Positions 8,056-16,848 of a stretch of DNA of 24,000 nucleotides are shown one piece after another. Each line of letters opens with the position of its first letter. Position 1 is the first letter of the stretch. The notes under the pieces are model-generated. The model saw only the letters and a program-made list of their open reading frames with translations. It was not told the DNA's origin and ran no database searches. The translations under genes were made by a program, and so were the position numbers. This DNA comes from Bryobacterales bacterium (GTDB lineage: Bacteria > Acidobacteriota > Terriglobia > Bryobacterales > UBA6623): positions 1,042,062 through 1,066,061 of the forward strand of contig OZ224030.1 in NCBI GenBank assembly GCA_963666225.3. The letters run 5' to 3'.

Positions 8056-8162
8056 CCACCGGTCCGTCCACCTCGCGCTGCCGCAGCGCAGGGTGACGTT
8101 CCGGCCTGTGACCGCGGACGCCCGTCGGCTTGGTGCAGCATAATGGTCGGGGGCTCGGGACG

Positions 8163-9323
8163 ATGGATTTCTTCGACCAGGTGGGCCAAGCGTTGTCTTC
8201 CGGCGACGTCGATCGCGGGTTCGAGCTCGCGATTGAGCGTTTTCGCGAGGAGCGGGCCTACCCTCTGATCTTCGAAGCCCGCCTGATGCGCAAGCGCCAT
8301 GCGCTGGGCATGCCGCTGATCCAGACCGAGCCTTGGAAGAACCTCGAGCCTTCCGTTCAGGCGGAGTACGAGAGGGCGACCATGGAGGCTGCCGGGGAGG
8401 TCGGCGGGCTGTTCTTGGAGGACGGCGAGATTGGCAAGGCGTGGCCGTACTTCCGGGCCATCGGTGACCGAGAGGCCGTGCGCTCGGCGATTGAGGAGCA
8501 CGGCCCCACCGCGAGCGGCGAGGCTCTGGAGGGAGTGATCGAGGTTGCCTATCACGAGCAGGTCAGCCCGAGGCGCGGATTCGAGCTGATCCTGAAGCAC
8601 CACGGCACTTGCCGGGCGATCACCAACTTCTCGCAGTACCCGGTCGAGGAAGGGCGGGCGGACTGTGCCCAGATGCTGGCCGAGAATGTGCACTCGGAAT
8701 TGCTCGGCAACATCAAGTACGCCATCGAGAAACACGACGGAAGCGCTCCCGACGGCGATGATTTGGCGGCCACCGTGGTCGGCAGGGACTGGCTCTTCGA
8801 CGGGAATGCCTACTACTTGGACACCTCGCATGTCTCCTCGCTTGTCCAAATGGCACCCTCCATTGACAGGTCGGAGACCCTGAGGCTGTTGCTCGGGCTC
8901 GCCGAGTACGGCCGCCGCCTCGGGGAGATGTACCAGTTTCCCGGGAATCCGCCGTTCGAAGACGTCTTCGCGGACTTCGCGGTCTATATCAAGGCAGTGC
9001 TCGGCGTCGAGGTCGAGGCCGGGCTGGACCACTTCCGCCGCAAGATCGAGGTCTGCGACCCGAACGTGGCCGGGACCACGCCTGCTCAGGTGCTGGTCAA
9101 CCTGTTGGTGCGTATAGGCAGGAAGGCCGAGGCGGTCGACGTCGCGCTGGAGCATCTGACCGATGCCAATCCGCAATTCCTGCAGTGCCCGGGACCGCTG
9201 CAGCTTTGCCAGATCGCTGGGGATTACGGGCGGCTGGCCACGGTGGCCCGCGAGCGGCGCGACCTACTCAGCTTCGCGGCGGCGACGATGCAGGATTCCC
9301 CACTGCCAAGGCCGGCGGCCTAG
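8163..9323 (+). CDS. Conserved hypothetical protein (all-alpha composition), function unknown
   Basis: The ORF has a balanced, protein-like composition. An ATG (MDFFDQ...) is preceded by a G-rich stretch; the track start at 8130 is a TTG 11 codons upstream. The stop TAG (9321-9323) lies inside the 9-bp target duplication of the downstream insertion. Confidence 0.7.
   Translation: MDFFDQVGQALSSGDVDRGFELAIERFREERAYPLIFEARLMRKRHALGMPLIQTEPWKNLEPSVQAEYERATMEAAGEVGGLFLEDGEIGKAWPYFRAIGDREAVRSAIEEHGPTASGEALEGVIEVAYHEQVSPRRGFELILKHHGTCRAITNFSQYPVEEGRADCAQMLAENVHSELLGNIKYAIEKHDGSAPDGDDLAATVVGRDWLFDGNAYYLDTSHVSSLVQMAPSIDRSETLRLLLGLAEYGRRLGEMYQFPGNPPFEDVFADFAVYIKAVLGVEVEAGLDHFRRKIEVCDPNVAGTTPAQVLVNLLVRIGRKAEAVDVALEHLTDANPQFLQCPGPLQLCQIAGDYGRLATVARERRDLLSFAAATMQDSPLPRPAA
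9315..9323. repeat. Left copy of the 9-bp direct target-site duplication GCGGCCTAG
   Basis: An identical 9-mer abuts the outer end of the right terminal repeat at 16840-16848. Confidence 0.75.
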
Positions 9324-9373
9324 CTAGCGCTACATCGTAGTTAACACAGAGCGGGTTAGTCGTGTAGAACAGC
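9324..9373 (+). repeat. Left terminal inverted repeat, outer part (before the intron)
   Basis: CTAGCGCTACATCGTAGTTAACACAGAGCGGGTTAGTCGTGTAGAACAGC matches the reverse complement of 16790-16839 with 5 mismatches. Confidence 0.8.
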
Positions 9374-9719
9374 GTGCGCCGTGCTAAGGCACTGGCTCCC
9401 AGCGGGTGCGAAGCCCGCCCGGCTAACTGTCGCTCCAGCCGGAAGCCGTCGGAGCGGGTCATGGAGGTAACGACATGGACTGAAGCACTTCGACGTGACG
9501 GGCCGCCTTTTGGGCGGCTCAGCGAGCACGCAGGCCGCAACGCGAGTGAACGCCGAGCAGGCCTCGAAAAGCACAATGCGGAGGCCGACCCGCCGTTGTT
9601 TCGGGGAAGGCAGCTAGCGTCCGGGAAGCGAGCGACGCGAGCACCGGGCGTCTCCGCCGGGGTATTGGCGGCAGCATGCGTGCAAGAGGGAGACGGAGGC
9701 AACACGGGAAGCCCTGGCG

Positions 9720-11210
9720 GTGGCGCGCACGCGCCAACCGGCATCCCGCGAGGGACAGGCCGGGCCGGGCAGGGTGGCGGAGAGGCCCGTAGTACCGACG
9801 AAGCCGGGTAACTCCGGCGGAGGGAAGGGACCTCAGTTCGAGAGCGATGCGGGAAGGGGGAAAGGACCGGTGGAGACTGGCGAAGGCCTAGGAGCTCCGG
9901 AAACTGTTCGGAGACTCCAGACGGCATTACATGTGAAAGCGAAGGGAGATCCGGGCTTTCGGTTCTACACGCTGAGTGACAAGGTGTGGCGGGAGGACGT
10001 GATGGCTGCCGCGTGGCAGGCGGTGCGCCGCAACGGCGGGGCCTGCGGAGTGGACGGCGAGACGTTCCAGCACATCGAGGAGCGAGGCGTGGACGGCTGG
10101 CTCGGAGGACTGGCGGAAGAGCTGAGGGAGAACACCTACCGACCGCATGCGGTGCGGCAGGTGCTGATCCCGAAGAAGCAGCCGGGGAAATTCCGACCGC
10201 TGGGCATACCGTGCATCCGGGACCGGGTAGCGCAGACGGCGGCCACGCTGGTGTTGACGCCGATCTTCGAAGCGGACCTGCAACCGGAACAGTACGCCTA
10301 CAGGGAGGGCCGGAGCGCGCTGGACGCGGTGCGTCACGCGCATCGGCTGGTGCACACCGGGCACGGCGAAATCGTGGACGGCGATCTGTCGAATTACTTT
10401 GGCGAGATCCCGCACACCGAACTCATCAAGTCCATCGCGCGGCGCGTTAGCGACGGGCGGATGCTGGGCTGGATCAAGCTGTGGCTGGAGATGGCTGTGG
10501 TAGAGGACGACGGCAAGGGCGGCCAGCGCCGCACGAACCGGGCGCGCCGGGAAAGGAAGGGGACGCCGCAAGGCGCTCCGATCTCCCCGTTGCTGAGCAA
10601 CGTCTACATGCGGCGGTTCCTCCTAGGTTGGAAGCTGCTGGGCCTGGCCCGGCGGTTCGGCGCGGAGATAGTGAATTACGCGGACGACTTCGTGATCTGC
10701 GGCAAGGCCCCGGCGGAAGCCATGCGGGCCGCAGTCGAAAGGATCATGGGGAAGCTGCGCTTACCGCTGAACGCGACGAAGACCGACTGCCTGCGCACGC
10801 CGGAGGAGCCGTTCGAGTTCCTCGGGTACCGCATCGGACGCAATTACAGCCCGCGCACAGGCCGGGCCTACATAGGCACGCGCCCGAGCAAGGCGAGCGT
10901 CCGCAGCATATGCCGCAAGATCAGTGAGCTGACTCGGGCAAGATACGGGCTGCTGGCCCCGGAACTGGTGGTGGCGAGGCTGAACCGAGCGATGCTCGGC
11001 TGGGCGAACTACTTCCGGTTGGGACAGGTGAGCCCGGCGTATTGCGCCGTGGACGCACACGCGGTCAAGCGGCTGCGTCAGTGGCTGTGTCGGAAGCACA
11101 AGGTGAAATCGGGGAGATACGTGCGCTACCCGAGCGAGAGGCTGTGGGACGACTTCGGCCTCGTGCGCCTGCAACTGCTGACGGCCAGCTTCCCGTGGGC
11201 GAAGACATGA
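9720..11210 (+). CDS. Group II intron-encoded reverse transcriptase/maturase (no endonuclease domain seen)
   Basis: The N-terminal block is typical of bacterial intron-encoded proteins (RRLQTALHVKAKGDPGFRFYTLSDKVWREDV...NGGACGVDGETF). RT motifs are present, including PLGIPCIRDRVAQ and NYADDFVI (YADD). The C-terminus has a maturase/X-domain-like segment (LNRAMLGWANYFRLG). The start codon is uncertain: GTG at 9720 or a later GTG. Confidence 0.9.
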   Translation: MARTRQPASREGQAGPGRVAERPVVPTKPGNSGGGKGPQFESDAGRGKGPVETGEGLGAPETVRRLQTALHVKAKGDPGFRFYTLSDKVWREDVMAAAWQAVRRNGGACGVDGETFQHIEERGVDGWLGGLAEELRENTYRPHAVRQVLIPKKQPGKFRPLGIPCIRDRVAQTAATLVLTPIFEADLQPEQYAYREGRSALDAVRHAHRLVHTGHGEIVDGDLSNYFGEIPHTELIKSIARRVSDGRMLGWIKLWLEMAVVEDDGKGGQRRTNRARRERKGTPQGAPISPLLSNVYMRRFLLGWKLLGLARRFGAEIVNYADDFVICGKAPAEAMRAAVERIMGKLRLPLNATKTDCLRTPEEPFEFLGYRIGRNYSPRTGRAYIGTRPSKASVRSICRKISELTRARYGLLAPELVVARLNRAMLGWANYFRLGQVSPAYCAVDAHAVKRLRQWLCRKHKVKSGRYVRYPSERLWDDFGLVRLQLLTASFPWAKT

Positions 11211-11220
11211 TCTCGTCCGA

Positions 11221-11253
11221 GAGCCGGATGCTGGAAATCGGCACGTCCGGTTC
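11221..11253 (+). ncRNA. Group II intron domain V (catalytic hairpin)
   Basis: GAGCCGGAUGCUGGAAAUCGGCACGUCCGGUUC has a 9-bp lower stem with the AGC triad, a 2-nt AC bulge, a 4-bp upper stem and a GAAA-type loop. It lies 10 nt after the IEP stop. Confidence 0.85.
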
Positions 11254-11256
11254 GAC

Positions 11257-11383
11257 GAGCGGGGAGAGGAAACGTGGCTAAGCAGGAAGGTCAGTGAGGC
11301 ACCTACAGATGGCGAAAGCCGTAGGAACAACCCCAAAACAGCTACTGCTTCTTGACTAAGGCCAACGCGCCTCTCCTCGACTC
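11257..11383 (+). ncRNA. Group II intron domain VI, unusually long (about 127 nt)
   Basis: Basal helix GAG/CTC, unpaired A at 11380, then CGGGGAGAGG (11260-11269) pairs with CCTCTCCTCG (11370-11379). The distal arm contains AAGCAG/CTGCTT and a CCTAC...GGC-GAAA-GCC...GTAGG hairpin. All pairings were found by eye only. Confidence 0.55.
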
Positions 11384-11386
11384 TAC

Positions 11387-11435
11387 AGTAGTGCGAATTG
11401 GCCTGCGTATGCTGAAGCTGGGCACAGCCGATTGG
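11387..11435 (+). repeat. Left terminal inverted repeat, inner part (after the intron); contains the DUF4338 start codon
   Basis: AGTAGTGCGAATTGGCCTGCGTATGCTGAAGCTGGGCACAGCCGATTGG matches the reverse complement of 16741-16789 with 3 mismatches. Confidence 0.8.
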
Positions 11436-11519
11436 TTGCGCGAGGCTCTGCGGAAGGGCACGCTCTCGCGGGCGGCCTTGGCACGACAGCTGTGTGAGCT
11501 GGACGGCTGGCGCAACTAG
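11409..11519 (+). pseudogene. DUF4338 (DruA-family) gene, 5' fragment of 36 codons, ending at a TAG supplied by the abutting Rpn cassette
   Basis: MLKLGTADWLREALRKGTLSRAALARQLCELDGWRN*. The sequence continues in frame (NRKGERCAASARKGLPRLAAELGLPLPP...) on the opposite strand at 14500 downward. Confidence 0.65.
11498..11516 (+). repeat. 19-bp junction repeat GCTGGACGGCTGGCGCAAC, copy 1
   Basis: Identical copies occur at 14508-14526 (direct) and 14482-14500 (inverted). All three sit exactly at rearrangement junctions. Confidence 0.9.
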
Positions 11520-11864
11520 CCCTGCCAGCATGATCGTGCCGGTTCCCGTGCTACCGTCCAGCCACTCTCTGGCGGGGCCAGCCCGCGGACTGTGGCTCTT
11601 GAAGGGCGCTGACGATTGAAGGGCCGATGCCCACCCGTGCCCGGCAGCGAACCTCGGCGGTCGTGAGGGCTCAGGCGACCGGGCCCTATGCCGACGCAGC
11701 CGTCTCGGGGCCATCCTCTGCTGGCAGTTGCGGTGTGATGGTTGTCCGCAGGGCTCGTTTCGCGATTCACCGCACAATCATCGAGGCCGGGCGGCGGTGC
11801 TACCCTGCCCCTTGACGCCGACGCGGTCCTGACTTGTAGCGGCGGCGAGCATCACCAACCCACC

Positions 11865-12860
11865 ATGGATCCGGCAGTCAACCCTGGCAAGCCCAAAGAC
11901 AAGAAGCCACGCAACACCATTGACAAGCCGCACGACGCCCTCTTCCAAGGGCTGCTTTCGGACCCGCTGCGCTCGCAGTCCGTGCTGCAGGCGCACCTGG
12001 AGCGGTGGACGCTGGAGCTGCTGGCCGACGAATTGCCAGTGCCGCTGGACCCCAGCTTCGTGGACGAGGCCTTGCGTCGGAGCCAGAGCGACAAGCTGCT
12101 ACAGGTGACGCTCAAGGATGGCGCGCCAGGCTACGTGTATGCCCTGCTGGAGCACAAGTCCTATCCGGACGCAGGTACGGCGCTGCAGATCTCAACGTAC
12201 AAGAGCCGTATCTGGGAACGGTACGCCCAAGGCCGAGCGAGCAGGCTCCGGGCGCTGCCGACGATCATCCCTGTCGTGTTCTATCACGGGGAAGAGGAGT
12301 GGACGGCACCGATGTCGATTCGGGAAATGCTGCGGACCCGGGACGAACGGTCGCGGAAACTGGAGCCAGCGCTTGGGTATTATCTGCGGGACTTGAGAAG
12401 GATTCCAGCGGAGCAACTGGCATCCGACCGGGCAGCGCGGGCGGGTTTGATCGCGCTGCGCCACTCGCATGCGCGCAGCCAGGACGAGCGGCTGCGGGAA
12501 CTGCCCGAAGTAGTGGCCGGGCCACGGTCGGGATCGGAGTACGAGAAGCAGGTTTTCATGTATCTTATGAACATCTGGGGCATCGCGTCCGAAACGCTGG
12601 GAGACGTTGCGGAAGTAGTCAAACCGAGGAGGGGTAAGGCCGTGGTTGGACAGATCGTGCAGGAACTCATTGATCGGGGCGAGGCCAAAGGGCTGGCTGG
12701 TGCCTTGACACGACTCTTGGAGCGTCGATTCGGCATGCTGCCGCTTGCAGTCCGTAGGTGGATCGCAACGGCCCCGCCGAGTGAGCTGGACGATCGGTTC
12801 ACCGACTCCTTGGACGCCAAGTCCCTCGCCGAAGTGTTTCCGGGGCTCGATTGGAACTGA
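11865..12860 (+). CDS. Rpn family recombination-promoting nuclease / putative transposase (PD-(D/E)xK, YhgA-like) with DUF4351-like C-terminal domain, copy 1
   Basis: KPHDALFQGLL near the N-terminus; SDKLLQV...GYVYALLEHKSYPD (D...ExK core); LPTIIPVVFYHGEEEWT; C-terminal GEAKG...LLERRFG...LD...L.AKSLAEV. These match E. coli RpnA-type landmarks (PHDAVFK, YSDVLY, VLIEHQS, LPLVIPILFYHG). I chose the ATG at 11865 over the track's TTG at 11742. No Shine-Dalgarno is visible (CACCAACCCACC-ATG). Confidence 0.85.
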   Translation: MDPAVNPGKPKDKKPRNTIDKPHDALFQGLLSDPLRSQSVLQAHLERWTLELLADELPVPLDPSFVDEALRRSQSDKLLQVTLKDGAPGYVYALLEHKSYPDAGTALQISTYKSRIWERYAQGRASRLRALPTIIPVVFYHGEEEWTAPMSIREMLRTRDERSRKLEPALGYYLRDLRRIPAEQLASDRAARAGLIALRHSHARSQDERLRELPEVVAGPRSGSEYEKQVFMYLMNIWGIASETLGDVAEVVKPRRGKAVVGQIVQELIDRGEAKGLAGALTRLLERRFGMLPLAVRRWIATAPPSELDDRFTDSLDAKSLAEVFPGLDWN

Positions 12861-12977
12861 GGAAGCCGCTGGCCGCGAGCCGCCCGGAGGTTCGCCTCGA
12901 TCTGCACCAGGTAGGACCACAATGCTAACCGGGCGTGGGTTTCCAGATTGTCCCGGCGAGTGCGCGGCGCGCCGGAG

Positions 12978-13224
12978 TCAACCGGAGAAATACTGAAGGT
13001 CCCAGGACGGTCGGCCGCGACAGATCGAGCCAGCGGCTGAGCACCGGCCGGGCGACTTGAGGAAGATACTGGGTGTACGGCTTGCGTCGGACCTCGCGGC
13101 GCGGGCGCTTAATCGTGCTGCGGCACCGTGCGCTGCCCGAAGTGGTGACACAGACGGCGGTCGGGATCGGATCTCGAGAAGCGAGTGTTCTTGTGCCTCA
13201 TGAAGGTTTGGGACGGTGGGCCGA
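12978..13224 (+). pseudogene. Decayed Rpn paralog remnant downstream of copy 1
   Basis: Nucleotide-level colinearity with Rpn codons from about SIREML through ...SGSEYEKQVFMYLMNIW. For example, TCGGGATCGGATCTCGAGAAGCGAGTGTTCTTGTGCCTCATGAAGG aligns with TCGGGATCGGAGTACGAGAAGCAGGTTTTCATGTATCTTATGAAC. The remnant is interrupted by stops and indels. Confidence 0.55.
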
Positions 13225-13285
13225 CTAGCGCGGAAGCGTAGTTAACTCTTACTTTCAGTTGCGAGTTGAAGTTGGCCTGGCCGAA
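13225..13285 (+). repeat. Third, more diverged copy of the terminal-repeat motif (internal)
   Basis: CTAGCGCGGAAGCGTAGTTAAC matches CTAGCGCTACATCGTAGTTAAC of the left TIR at 18 of 22 positions. It is followed by a second similar block (...GTTGCGAGTTGAAGTTGGCCTG versus ...GTAGTGCGAATTGGCCTG). Confidence 0.5.
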
Positions 13286-13820
13286 TCTGTGAGAGTCCCC
13301 GGGGGCGGTGGGCCAAGTCTGGAGGATGGCAGCAGCGGTGCAGACGAGTCTAGTGCCCAGCGGCGTTCTGGGCGTGCTGCAGGCCGCCGTCTTCGGGGAG
13401 AGTGGGCGGCGCTGTCCCTTGGGCGCCCGCGCCTCCCATGGCCGGCGACTGCGGCCAAGCCGTGGGTCTGTGCGAGGTTCAGCCAACAGACTGGCCGACC
13501 GCGCACCGGCTCCAGACGGACTAGCGGACGTTCTCCGGCTTTGCACCCCGGTGAGGGCCCCTGTGGTTCGCCGCGAACTGTCGCGCTAGTCCCGAGCTCT
13601 CCGGCTTGGCGCTACCGGGACTCCATGGCCTGCGGCCGGGCTGCGCTCGGCGGCTATCAATCACCGTCGAAAATTGCACACTTTTCGGGAGCCGCCGCGG
13701 AGGGGGCGGAGCGACCGGAGCGGGGGCTCCCGATGGAGTCGAGACACCCATCATGACCCTGCTCCCCCATTCCCGGTGTGCTCCGCGGAGACGGCGCGGG
13801 AGGCCGTTGGATGGATGGCC

Positions 13821-14500
13821 TTCGAGAGTTCCATATGGCGGCGCATCCCGCGCGTAGCGCACCAGCAAGGAGACCTGCTTGCGATTGCGCTCCGGCTCGC
13901 GGAAGTCCGGCCTGGCCCGCTGCGCCCGCGAGGGCTCCTTGGCCCCCCGCGGCAGGCCCTCCGTCTCACCCAGGCACTCAAAGCCCGCCGCCTTGTAGCA
14001 CGTCGCCCGCCGGTGCTGCTCGACGCAGGTCTCAACCGCCACCGGTGCGCTCCCGTTCAGCCGCTGACAGTCGAGGCCCAAGCGCCGCAGCGCCAAGCCC
14101 GGCACGTGGCTGGCGAGGTTCTTGACAACCACGCCGGAGCGCACCAGGAAACGGTCGTTGGAGACCAGCTTGGGCAGGTTCCGGCGGCGGGTGCGCTCGT
14201 CCCAGCCCAGATGCTGGTCGCGCGGCCCTAGGCGCATCGGCGCGGCCACGAAGCTGACCACCCCCACGACCTGACCCCCCGGCTCGGACGCCGTACACCA
14301 GCCGGAAACCCGGTGCGCGCCCGCGCCCCAGCGGATGTTCCGCAGCCAGCAGATCCCCATAGTGCCGACGCAGCTTGAGCGTGTCGGCCGGGCGCCGCGC
14401 CGGCGGCAAGGGCAGACCTAGCTCTGCCGCCAGCCTTGGCAGACCCTTGCGAGCCGAGGCCGCACACCTCTCCCCTTTCCGGTTGCGCCAGCCGTCCAGC
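13821..14500 (-). pseudogene. DUF4338 (DruA-family) gene, 3' portion on the minus strand; frameshifted
   Basis: Two minus-strand frames together give LDGWRNRKGERCAASARKGLPRLAAELGLPLPP...HPLGRGRAPGFRLVYGVRAGG / QVVGVVSFVAAPMRLGPRDQHLGWDE..NLPKLVSNDRFLV...VKNLASH...VAVETCVEQHRRATCYKAAGFECLGETEG. This follows the DUF4338 pattern (..AAxWxxxxRDxxIGW..NLxxVVNNxRFLILP..NLAS..LLETFV..GTCYKAANW..G.T.G). The frame switches at a G6 run (14275-14280). Several conserved positions are substituted, and the ORF runs past the expected C-terminus. Confidence 0.7.
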
Positions 14501-14526
14501 TGTGTGAGCTGGACGGCTGGCGCAAC
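14482..14526. repeat. Perfect 45-nt palindrome: 19-bp arm, 7-nt spacer (TGTGTGA), 19-bp arm
   Basis: GTTGCGCCAGCCGTCCAGC TGTGTGA GCTGGACGGCTGGCGCAAC. The left arm is the start of the minus-strand DUF4338 3' piece. The right arm plus spacer duplicates 11491-11516. Confidence 0.9.
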
Positions 14527-14807
14527 TAGCCCTGCCAGCATGATCGTGCCGGTTCCCGTGCTACCGTCCAACCACTCTCTGGCGGGGCCAGCCCGCGGAC
14601 TGTGGCTCTTGAAAGGCGCTGACGATTGAAGGGCCGACGCAGCCGTCTCGGGGCCATCCTCTGCTGGCAGTTGCGGTGTGATGGTTGTCCGCAGGGCTCG
14701 TTTCGCGATGCACCGCACAATCATCGAGGCCGGGCGGCGGTGCTACCCTGCCCCTTGACGCCGACGCGGTCCTAGCCTGTAGCGGCGCCGAGCATCACCA
14801 ACCCACC

Positions 14808-15875
14808 ATGGATCCGGCAGTCAACCCTGGCAAGCCCAAAGACGAGAAGCCACGCAACACCATTGACAAGCCGCACGACGCTCTCTTCCAAGGGCTGCTC
14901 TCGGACCCGCTGCGCTCGCAGTCCGTGCTGCAGGCGCACCTGGAGCGGTGGACGCTGGAGCTGCTGGCCGACGAATTGCCAGTGCCGCTGGACCCCAGCT
15001 TCGTGGACCAGGCCTTGCGTCGGAGCCAGAGCGACAAGCTGCTGCAGGTGACGCTCAAGGATGGCGCGCCAGGCTACGTGTATGCCCTGCTGGAGCACAA
15101 GTCCTATCCGGACGCAGGTACGGCGCTGCAGATCTCAACGTACAAGAGCCGTATCTGGGAACGGTACGCCCAAGGCCGAGCGAGCAGGCTCCGGGCGCTG
15201 CCGACGATCATCCCTGTCGTGTTCTATCACGGGGAAGAGGAGTGGACGGCACCGATGTCGATTCGGGAAATGCTGCAGACCCGGGACGAACGGTCGCGGA
15301 AGCTGGAGCCAGCGTTTGGGTATTATCTGAGGGACTTGAGAAGGATTCCAGCGGAGCAACTGGCATCCGACGCCGCAGCGCGGGCGGGTTTGATCGCGCT
15401 GCGCCACTCGCATGCGCGCAGCCAGGACGAGCGGCTGCGGGAACTGCCCGAAGTAGTGGCCGGGCCACGGTCGGGATCGGAGTACGAGAAGCAGGTTTTC
15501 ATGTATCTTATGAACATCTGGGGCATCGCGTCCGAAACGCTGGGAGACGTTGCGGAAGTAGTCAAACCGAGGAGGGGTAAGGCCGTGGTTGGACAGATCG
15601 TACAGGAGCTCATTGATCGGGGCAAGGCCCAGGGGCTGGCGCAAGGGCTGATCAAGGGGGAGGCCAAGGGCGAGGCCAAGGGGCTGATCAAGGGCGAGGC
15701 CAAAGGGCTGGCTGGTGCCTTGACACGACTCTTGGAGCGTCGATTCGGCATGCTGCCGCGTGCAGTCCGTAGGTGGATCGCAACGGCCCCGGCCAGTGAG
15801 CTGGACGCTCGGTTTACCGACTCCTTGGACGCCAAGTCCCTCGCCGAGGTATTTCCGGGCCTTGATTGGAACTGA
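14808..15875 (+). CDS. Rpn family recombination-promoting nuclease / putative transposase, copy 2
   Basis: Near-identical to copy 1, with a handful of substitutions by eye. It carries a 24-codon expansion of a GEAKG/GLIKG-type repeat in the linker before the C-terminal domain. It has the same upstream leader minus a 67-bp segment. Confidence 0.85.
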   Translation: MDPAVNPGKPKDEKPRNTIDKPHDALFQGLLSDPLRSQSVLQAHLERWTLELLADELPVPLDPSFVDQALRRSQSDKLLQVTLKDGAPGYVYALLEHKSYPDAGTALQISTYKSRIWERYAQGRASRLRALPTIIPVVFYHGEEEWTAPMSIREMLQTRDERSRKLEPAFGYYLRDLRRIPAEQLASDAAARAGLIALRHSHARSQDERLRELPEVVAGPRSGSEYEKQVFMYLMNIWGIASETLGDVAEVVKPRRGKAVVGQIVQELIDRGKAQGLAQGLIKGEAKGEAKGLIKGEAKGLAGALTRLLERRFGMLPRAVRRWIATAPASELDARFTDSLDAKSLAEVFPGLDWN

Positions 15876-15992
15876 GGAAGCTGCTGGCCGCAAGCCGCCC
15901 GGAGGTTCGCCTCGATCTGCACCAGGTCGGACCACAATGCTAACCGGGCGTGGGTTTCCAGGTTGTCCCGGCGAGTGCGCGGCGCGCCGGAG

Positions 15993-16198
15993 TCAACCGG
16001 GGAAATACTGAAGGTCCCAGAACGGTCGACCGCGAGAGATCGAACCAGCGTCCGAGCACCGGCCGGGCGCCTTGAGGAAGATACTGGGTGAACGGCTTGC
16101 GTCGGACCTCGCGGCGCGGGCGCTTAATCGTGCTGCGGCACCGTGCGCTGCCCGAAGTGGTGACACAGACGGCGGTCGCGATCGGATCTCGAGAAGCG
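15993..16198 (+). pseudogene. Decayed Rpn paralog remnant downstream of copy 2, truncated by a crossover into genuine Rpn sequence
   Basis: Colinear with 12978-13188. At GAGAAGCG (16191-16198) the sequence switches from the decayed type to the intact-gene type. Confidence 0.55.
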
Positions 16199-16205
16199 GG
16201 TTTTC

Positions 16206-16556
16206 ATGTATCTTATGAACATCTGGGGCATCGCGTCCGAAACGCTGGGAGACGTTGCGGAAGTAGTCAAACCGAGGAGGGGTAAGGCCGTGGTTGGACA
16301 GATCGTACAGGAACTCATTGATCGGGGCAAGGCCCAGGGGCTGGCGCAAGGGCTGATCAAGGGGGAGGCCAAGGGCGAGGCCAAGGGGCTGGCTGGTGCC
16401 TTGACACGACTCTTGGAGCGTCGATTCGGCATGCTGCCGCGTGCAGTCCGTAGGTGGATCGCAACGGCCCCGGCCAGTGAGCTGGACGCTCGGTTTACCG
16501 ACTCCTTGGACGCCAAGTCCCTCGCCGAGGTATTTCCGGGCCTTGATTGGAACTGA
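16206..16556 (+). CDS. Orphan ORF equal to the C-terminal 116 residues of Rpn (linker plus DUF4351-like domain only)
   Basis: MYLMNIWGIASETLGD...AEVFPGLDWN is identical in register to the C-terminus of copy 2 and starts at the in-frame Met pair (M-Y-L-M) present inside both full-length genes. It has an intermediate repeat number in the linker. Whether it is expressed is unknown. Confidence 0.55.
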   Translation: MYLMNIWGIASETLGDVAEVVKPRRGKAVVGQIVQELIDRGKAQGLAQGLIKGEAKGEAKGLAGALTRLLERRFGMLPRAVRRWIATAPASELDARFTDSLDAKSLAEVFPGLDWN

Positions 16557-16673
16557 GGAAGCTGCTGGCCGCAAGCCGCCCGGAGGTTCGCCTCGATCTG
16601 CACCAGGTCGGACCACAATGCTAACCGGGCGTGGGTTTCCAGGTTGTCCCGGCGAGTGCGCGGCGCGCCGGAG

Positions 16674-16740
16674 TCAACCGGGGAAATACTGAAGGTCCCA
16701 GAACGGTCGACCGCGAGAGATCGAACCAGCGTCTGAGCAC
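16674..16740 (+). pseudogene. Third decayed Rpn remnant, cut off by the right terminal repeat
   Basis: Matches 15993-16059 with one substitution, ending ...CAGCGTCTGAGCAC directly at the inner edge of the right TIR. Confidence 0.5.
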
Positions 16741-16839
16741 CCAATCGGCTGTGCCCGGCTTCAGCATGCGCAGACCAATTCGCACTACTGCTGTACTACA
16801 CCACTAACCCCCTCTGTCTTAACTGCGATGTAGCGCTAG
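16741..16839 (-). repeat. Right terminal inverted repeat (uninterrupted, 99 bp)
   Basis: Its reverse complement equals 9324-9373 plus 11387-11435 with 8 mismatches, and includes a copy of the DUF4338 start (ATGCTGAAGCCGGGCACAGCCGATTGG). Confidence 0.8.
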
Positions 16840-16848
16840 GCGGCCTAG
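16840..16848. repeat. Right copy of the 9-bp direct target-site duplication GCGGCCTAG
   Basis: Identical to 9315-9323 and immediately outside the TIR end. Confidence 0.75.

Follow-up and report, generated by a model that had tools for sequence, protein, structure and literature searches.

A group II intron in the leader of a probable Tn5-like transposase gene and its ORF-less relatives in a Bryobacterales genome

The window analysed here, that is, the whole stretch of 24,000 nucleotides from a Bryobacterales bacterium (NCBI GenBank assembly GCA_963666225.3, contig OZ224030.1, positions 1,042,062 to 1,066,061 of the forward strand), harbours a group II intron of 2013 nt at 9374-11386 on the plus strand. 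The intron is inserted near the left end of a transposon, and the features of both are listed in Table 1. Its orientation is shared by the upstream open reading frame (ORF) at 8130-9323 and by the truncated start of the transposase gene at 11410, in agreement with the initial annotation, which had described the intron as sense to the upstream gene and to the 5′ piece of a DUF4338 gene. No terminator-like or sigma-70-like promoter site was found in 9100-9450. Read-through from the upstream gene is possible, since the orientation is sense and no terminator lies between, and such transcripts could splice. The host transposase gene is cut at codon 35, therefore splicing would rescue nothing.

Table 1. 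Positions of the intron, its exon contacts and the host element in the window. EBS, exon-binding site; IBS, intron-binding site; IEP, intron-encoded protein; RT, reverse transcriptase; TIR, terminal inverted repeat; D2-D6, domains II to VI.
Feature	Position	Strand	Remarks
Target-site duplication, 9 bp, GCGGCCTAG, left copy	9315-9323		Same 9-mer at 16840-16848
True TIR (~24 nt), left end	9324-9347	+	Tips of intact copies share CTAGCGC-N5-CGTAGTTGAC only
IBS2 region	9357-9365	+	Two registers, TAGT at -17 to -14 or GUGU at -12 to -9; 3-4 bp with the EBS2 loop
IBS1 GAACAGC	9367-9373	+	Last 7 nt of the 5′ exon; pairs 7/7 with EBS1, two G-U
Domain I	9374-9715	+	Consensus fold with 95 pairs, 48 with compensatory changes
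EBS2 internal loop AGCACAAU	9570-9577	+	Hypervariable loop between conserved helices; covaries with exon positions ~-14 to -11
EBS1 GUUGUUU	9595-9601	+	Terminal loop; U9601 is the seventh pair, with G-7
EBS3 U9665	9665	+	N of the conserved GGGGUA-N-UG loop, its one variable base; pairs with A11387
Domain II	9711-9775	+	Consensus fold; 25 compensatory pairs jointly over D2, D3 and the start of D4
Domain III	9778-9840	+	Consensus fold; within the joint 25 compensatory pairs
Domain IV, 5′ part including the IEP start	9846-9928	+	Conserved helices around the start codon; within the joint 25 compensatory pairs
IEP (RT and maturase)	9870-11210	+	446 aa, YADD, Pfam RVT_1 2.4e-32, GIIM 1.2e-14
Domain V with AGC triad	11221-11253	+	RF00029 alignment and consensus fold
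Domain VI	11257-11383	+	127 nt, branched; D5-D6 fold in total with 21 compensatory pairs
IBS3 A	11387	+	First 3′-exon base; pairs with U9665; A or G at +1 of the complete genome copies
Truncated host transposase start (DruA/DUF4338 domain)	11410-11516	+	35 codons, then TAG; in intact copies, the corresponding ORF encodes 703 aa, and its start aligns with this piece
Second left end of the same element family, inverted	16737-16839	-	Carries the unoccupied target; junction between 16790 and 16789
Target-site duplication, 9 bp, right copy	16840-16848		Same 9-mer as 9315-9323

The intron starts with GTGCG at 9374 and finishes with CTCTAC at 11386, which satisfies the GUGYG and AY boundary rules. 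Its 5′ junction (9373/9374) reads ...GTGTAGAACAGC/GTGCGCC..., and the 3′ junction (11386/11387) reads ...CGACTCTAC/AGTAGTGCGAATT.... Two Rfam models match the element: RF02003 (group-II-D1D4-4) at 9400-9545 with 78 bits, and RF00029 (D5-D6) at 11219-11386 with 42.4 bits, compared to a gathering score of 40. The 25-mer obtained by joining the exon halves matches 16777-16801 on the minus strand except at position -6, where the single mismatch is a T for an A, and no match was obtained in 100 shuffles. The identical unoccupied target is present at at least six other left ends of the host element elsewhere in the genome. Both splice junctions are fixed to the base because of this uninterrupted paralogous site and the identical empty sites. 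The initial annotation had recognised a group II intron and had derived both junctions, as well as the difference at -6, from the same empty site. The 25-mer match supports the junctions and the substitution, the identity of the element is upheld by the Rfam matches, by a fold of domains I to VI supported by covariation and by an RT/maturase ORF, and RF00029, instead of placing the 3′ splice site elsewhere, ended exactly at 11386. The region 9374-11386 is a complete group II intron; it adds an ordinary new member to a well-known type of element.

The IEP starts with GTG at 9870, which aligns with the ATG of most relatives. A Pfam search with the IEP returned RVT_1 and GIIM and nothing else, thus no endonuclease domain was found. 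The best solved relatives of the protein are group II intron RTs, IIC enzymes first, a resemblance of sequence only. Its closest relatives are encoded by introns of Bryobacterales metagenome-assembled genomes (MAGs), with 82-85% identity.

For the analysis of the ribozyme, eighty related introns were fetched from other genomes, with proteins 67-85% identical to the IEP of the window and hosts belonging to Bryobacterales, Vicinamibacterales, Longimicrobiales, Rhodothermales and other groups. The fold alignments consist of related introns from other genomes and the window copy, and the consensus of domain I was derived from 26 related introns. The initial annotation had assigned 9374-9719 to domains I-IV; domain I is indeed located there, but domains II, III and the start of domain IV occupy 9711-9928. 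In the outer helix of domain VI, GC/CG and AU/UA swaps were present in eight of the 18 sequences. The branch-point A11380 is bulged between the helices CGGGG/CCUCG and GAG/CUC, 7 nt from the 3′ end. Domain VI comprises 127 nt compared with the usual ~35-45 nt, the additional length being due to a conserved, branched insertion at the tip of the domain. This insertion holds a GCGAAAGC hairpin, present in the window copy and in all 17 aligned relatives. A shifted 3′ splice site or a 3′ extension was considered as the origin of the 130 nt that follow domain V, and was ruled out because both the branch A and the 3′ end have the canonical form and the empty site confirms the boundary; the extra RNA is located inside domain VI. 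A literature search on long domain VI in classes E and F gave nothing usable, and no published description was found there.

The contacts between intron and exons were supported by covariation. In the 31 complete copies of the intron in this genome, positions 9596, 9598 and 9600 vary jointly, resulting in two EBS1 alleles, GUUGUU[U/C] (ten copies) and GCUAUAU (21 copies), each located behind 5′ exons that pair with it. The 7-nt loop also differs from lineage to lineage among 25 related introns of other genomes, and matches their own 5′ exons. Over 77 distinct sites, 5.79 of the seven EBS1-IBS1 positions were paired, compared with 3.45 ± 0.14 after permutation of introns and sites, and none of the 2000 permutations reached the observed value. 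The same test applied to EBS2-IBS2 gave 3.57 of four positions paired compared with 2.73 ± 0.07 (0/2000). Recognition of the target by RNA-DNA base pairing is therefore shown by covariation. The EBS1 proposed in the initial annotation, GUUGUU at 9595-9600 pairing with IBS1 AACAGC, is backed by these data and lengthened to seven nt (9595-9601), and the EBS2 loop and EBS3 were located in addition.

All sites of the genome possess TA[A/G]T, or a one-base variant, at approximately -16 to -13, and the EBS2 loop pairs with the third base of this motif and the three bases after it. Copies with an AGGAU.. loop are located at TAATCC or TAATCT, and copies with AGCAU.. mostly at sites of the type TA[A/G]TG.. 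The T-A dinucleotide at about -16/-15 of the 5′ exons is nearly fixed in the whole lineage and opposes a conserved A-A or G-A in the EBS2 loop. By analogy with T-15 of RmInt1, the fixed T-A may be read by the protein. EBS3 pairs with the first base of the 3′ exon in most relatives, with exceptions that include L014/L020, L069 and L087. The features of structural class IIB are present, namely an EBS2 in an internal loop of subdomain ID pairing with IBS2, which is weak in the window copy, and a single-base EBS3 in the coordination loop. Class IIC, in which EBS2 is lacking and the target directly follows a terminator or another hairpin, does not fit: EBS2-IBS2 is present and no terminator-like site lies upstream. 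Hairpin or terminator targeting of the IIC type was likewise rejected: small inverted repeats occur in some flanks with no consistent stem, and there is no terminator at the window site.

The genome holds about 34 copies of the intron, counted as 34 intron 5′ ends. Four full-length copies, including that of the window, have an intact ORF, and two further full-length copies are interrupted. Twenty-six copies of 958-960 nt (the 959-nt type), most of them close to ends of insertion sequences (IS), retain nucleotides 1-581 and 1671-2013 and have lost the ORF. These ORF-less copies outnumber the protein-coding partner about five to one and comprise several sublineages up to ~5% apart. Twenty-one out of the twenty-six differ from each other by only 0-4 nt and are located at 10 distinct matching sites, and the other sublineages are 27-53 differences away. 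The EBS1 allele GCUAUAU is found in ORF-less copies and is absent from all full-length copies. Examples of the ORF-less type in genome G000 are L008-L012, located at C1:1943631-1944590, C2:178125-179082, C10:318130-319087, C3:246376-247333 and C1:1351069-1352027. Nearly all sites belong to repeated elements, at 19-200 nt from one of their ends, and these elements are also present in many copies that lack the intron. Mobilisation of the ORF-less copies would take place in trans.

Other arrangements of the intron were also detected. At C2:129150-131197 (G000), a 35-nt remnant of an intron 3′ end directly precedes a full-length copy, and in L016 (3018 onward) a second intron begins right after the first. 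Such head-to-tail copies fit an EBS3 U that pairs with the first G of the intron. In G000:C1:1446122-1451337, an insertion of ~3.2 kb, probably an IS, divides a full-length copy at nt 760-767, with an overlap of 8 nt, and itself bears an ORF-less intron in the opposite orientation.

The host element of the intron spans 9324-16839 and is enclosed by the duplication GCGGCCTAG. It is bounded by two left ends in inverted orientation, and its 103-nt inverted repeat is formed by the arms 9324-9373 (90%) and 11387-11439 (93%), complementary to 16737-16839. The spliced form of the left end was found at more than ten other places in the genome. Intact copies of the transposon have a length of 6.26 kb, one of them with a clean 9-bp duplication; an example is L093 (G000:C1:638250-644750, minus strand). 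Their first gene encodes a protein of 703 aa with a DruA (DUF4338) domain followed by a Tn5-type transposase DNA-binding domain (Tnp_DNA_bind), and the second gene a large serine recombinase of 738 aa. The DUF4338 protein is probably a Tn5-like transposase. In the window, the place expected for the transposase inside the host element is occupied by copies of a Transposase_31 (YhgA/Rpn-like) gene, two of them full and one partial (11742-12860, 14685-15875 and 16173-16672), as direct repeats spaced 2943-3015 nt. At 14482-14526 there is a perfect palindrome of 20 nt with a spacer of 5 nt; it derives from the N-terminal coding sequence of the transposase, which is also found at 11497-11516, and marks a rearrangement junction inside the host element.

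Considering these results together, we regard it as very probable that the window contains a complete, IIB-like intron without endonuclease, whose target was chosen by RNA-DNA pairing and which was inserted in the leader of a transposase gene. The intron is probably still active, as judged from near-identical copies at many matching sites, which is an indirect basis for mobility. Some observations weigh against this reading: the EBS2-IBS2 pairing of the window copy is weak (3-4 bp) and its register ambiguous, insertion at this site is infrequent, given that no fewer than six identical targets are empty, and both splicing and mobility are deduced from sequence. The copy might instead be an immobile relic that no longer splices, given that its host gene was already broken, so that no selection for splicing acts at the window site. 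We consider this very unlikely, because only 7-30 of the 2013 positions distinguish the window copy from each of the other three full-length copies, all four keep the intact 446-aa ORF with YADD, and all ribozyme domains and pairings are intact in the window copy.

The location of the insertion also allows more than one explanation. In the initial annotation, the intron was placed within the functional TIR, where it was expected to prevent this end of the transposon from being recognised at the DNA level. It is true that the intron splits the 103-nt inverted repeat of the window, RmInt2 is located in the inverted repeats of ISRm17 (PMC4615759), and sub-terminal transposase binding sites may exist. 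Moreover, a related intron (L017, OZ241924.1, in a Bryobacterales MAG; IEP 82% identical), with its 5′ junction at 1007, sits 18 nt inside a CTAGCGCT... end, CTAGCGCTGGGCCATAGC/TGACACAG, which resembles the true TIR of the element in the window, and is there truly within the repeat. However, the left and right tips of the intact host copies share about 24 nt only, and a self-comparison of these copies revealed no inverted repeat longer than that. The insertion is located 50 nt from the left tip, 26 nt inward of the true TIR and 23 nt before the ATG of the transposase at 11410, i.e. in the 5′ leader. The repeat of the window runs over 103 nt and includes the transposase start codon because its right boundary is an inverted second left end. 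The intron thus lies outside the true repeat, the location inside the TIR is not borne out, a block of end recognition is not supported, and we regard a disabled transposon end as unlikely. A further possibility is that the family targets promoters, with TA[A/G]T about 12 nt upstream acting as a -10 box and insertion just past the transcription start. The motif is present in some form at every genome site, one site has TTGACA-N18-TATAAT, and several sites are a few bases ahead of an ATG. Nevertheless, the motif and the two following bases covary with the EBS2 loop, also in other genomes, the A/G and T/C alternations are those expected from pairing with U and G, and the site of the window has no promoter-like match. 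Promoter targeting is largely refuted by these observations, and we give it hardly any probability.

Insertion into the transposase leader guided by base pairing would have proceeded by reverse splicing into DNA followed by reverse transcription, at a target 50 nt from the left tip of the Tn5-like transposon. EBS1 reads the last seven exon bases and the EBS3 U the first base of the 3′ exon, with the EBS2 loop linked to the exon further upstream by a weak pairing of 3-4 bp. Introns without endonuclease, such as those of the RmInt1 type, are thought to prime on replication-fork DNA, and by analogy the intron of the window may do the same. The family is drawn to AT-rich leaders near IS ends because its EBS sequences are A/U-rich in a GC-rich genome, and this explains the site bias without a special targeting mechanism. 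Crude ORF calls were made around all insertion sites, but in this GC-rich genome they carried too much noise to give a frequency of leaders.

The presence of group II introns in IS elements has long been described. Similar to RmInt1 (bacterial class D, IIB3), whose target is ISRm2011-2, the intron of the window encodes an RT/maturase without endonuclease, has its target in an IS-type element and shows a fixed T upstream of IBS2, T-15 in RmInt1 and the conserved T-A in the lineage described here. It differs from RmInt1 by its branched domain VI of 127 nt and by the ~3 unpaired bases between IBS2 and IBS1. With bacterial IEP class D, the absence of the endonuclease domain was the only feature compared. 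The genus Solibacter presumably belongs to the Bryobacterales. Introns formerly placed in class F, for instance So.us.I2 of Solibacter usitatus (PMC3552965), are endonuclease-less and have an IIB-type RNA, like the intron of the window, a comparison made by description only.

RmInt2 of Sinorhizobium meliloti GR4, the intron of ISRm17, tolerates a 4-bp EBS2 pairing, and its head-to-tail copies are attributed to an EBS3 U that can pair with the first G of the intron (PMC4615759). The family of the window resembles RmInt2 as an IIB-type intron without endonuclease in IS ends, with EBS2 relaxed to ~4 bp, U as EBS3 and head-to-tail copies (C2:129150-131197 and L016). In contrast to RmInt2, the intron of the window lies inward of the true repeat and not within it, and its host is a Tn5-like transposon of 6.26 kb; the two are likened by features and not by relatedness of their proteins. 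Introns within inverted repeats of IS elements are already published, and the case of the window is real and neat, but ordinary.

ORF-less introns are called rare in bacteria, where they occur beside related coding copies (PMC4424553). In the description given in PMC8643678, the Thermosynechococcus elongatus family (PMC2882425) is the known case in which mobilisation in trans extends to ORF-less copies. The introns of T. elongatus are of type IIB1, and most RTs of the IIB1 and IIB2 introns in the study of PMC8643678 carry an endonuclease domain. The family described here is similar in having few coding copies and an ORF-less majority that continues to spread, with divergent EBS and new target sites. 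It differs in its intron lineage, in the GC-rich genome and in the IEP without endonuclease, and mobilisation in trans is presumed in our case.

For annotation, the window offers an intron defined to the base, with EBS1, EBS2 and EBS3 mapped. The picture of the host element is also corrected: the true repeats are short, and the transposase, Tn5-like, has a DruA-type domain. The insertion is a further instance of one mobile element, an intron, that shelters within another. The long domain VI and the burst of ORF-less copies are the only parts that go beyond routine. The drift of EBS sequences, and the new targets that it opens, can be followed in this genome, where the family serves as a natural data set: it includes many ORF-less copies, EBS1 occurs in two alleles, and the variants of EBS2 follow their targets. 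From the number, similarity and sites of the copies, we lean slightly towards considering the 959-nt ORF-less derivative a true non-autonomous retroelement lineage that recently burst. If true, group II introns would have evolved, alongside a branched domain VI of 127 nt present throughout the lineage, a parasite of their own RT that is similar to a short interspersed nuclear element (SINE), and for bacteria the example would be unusually clear.

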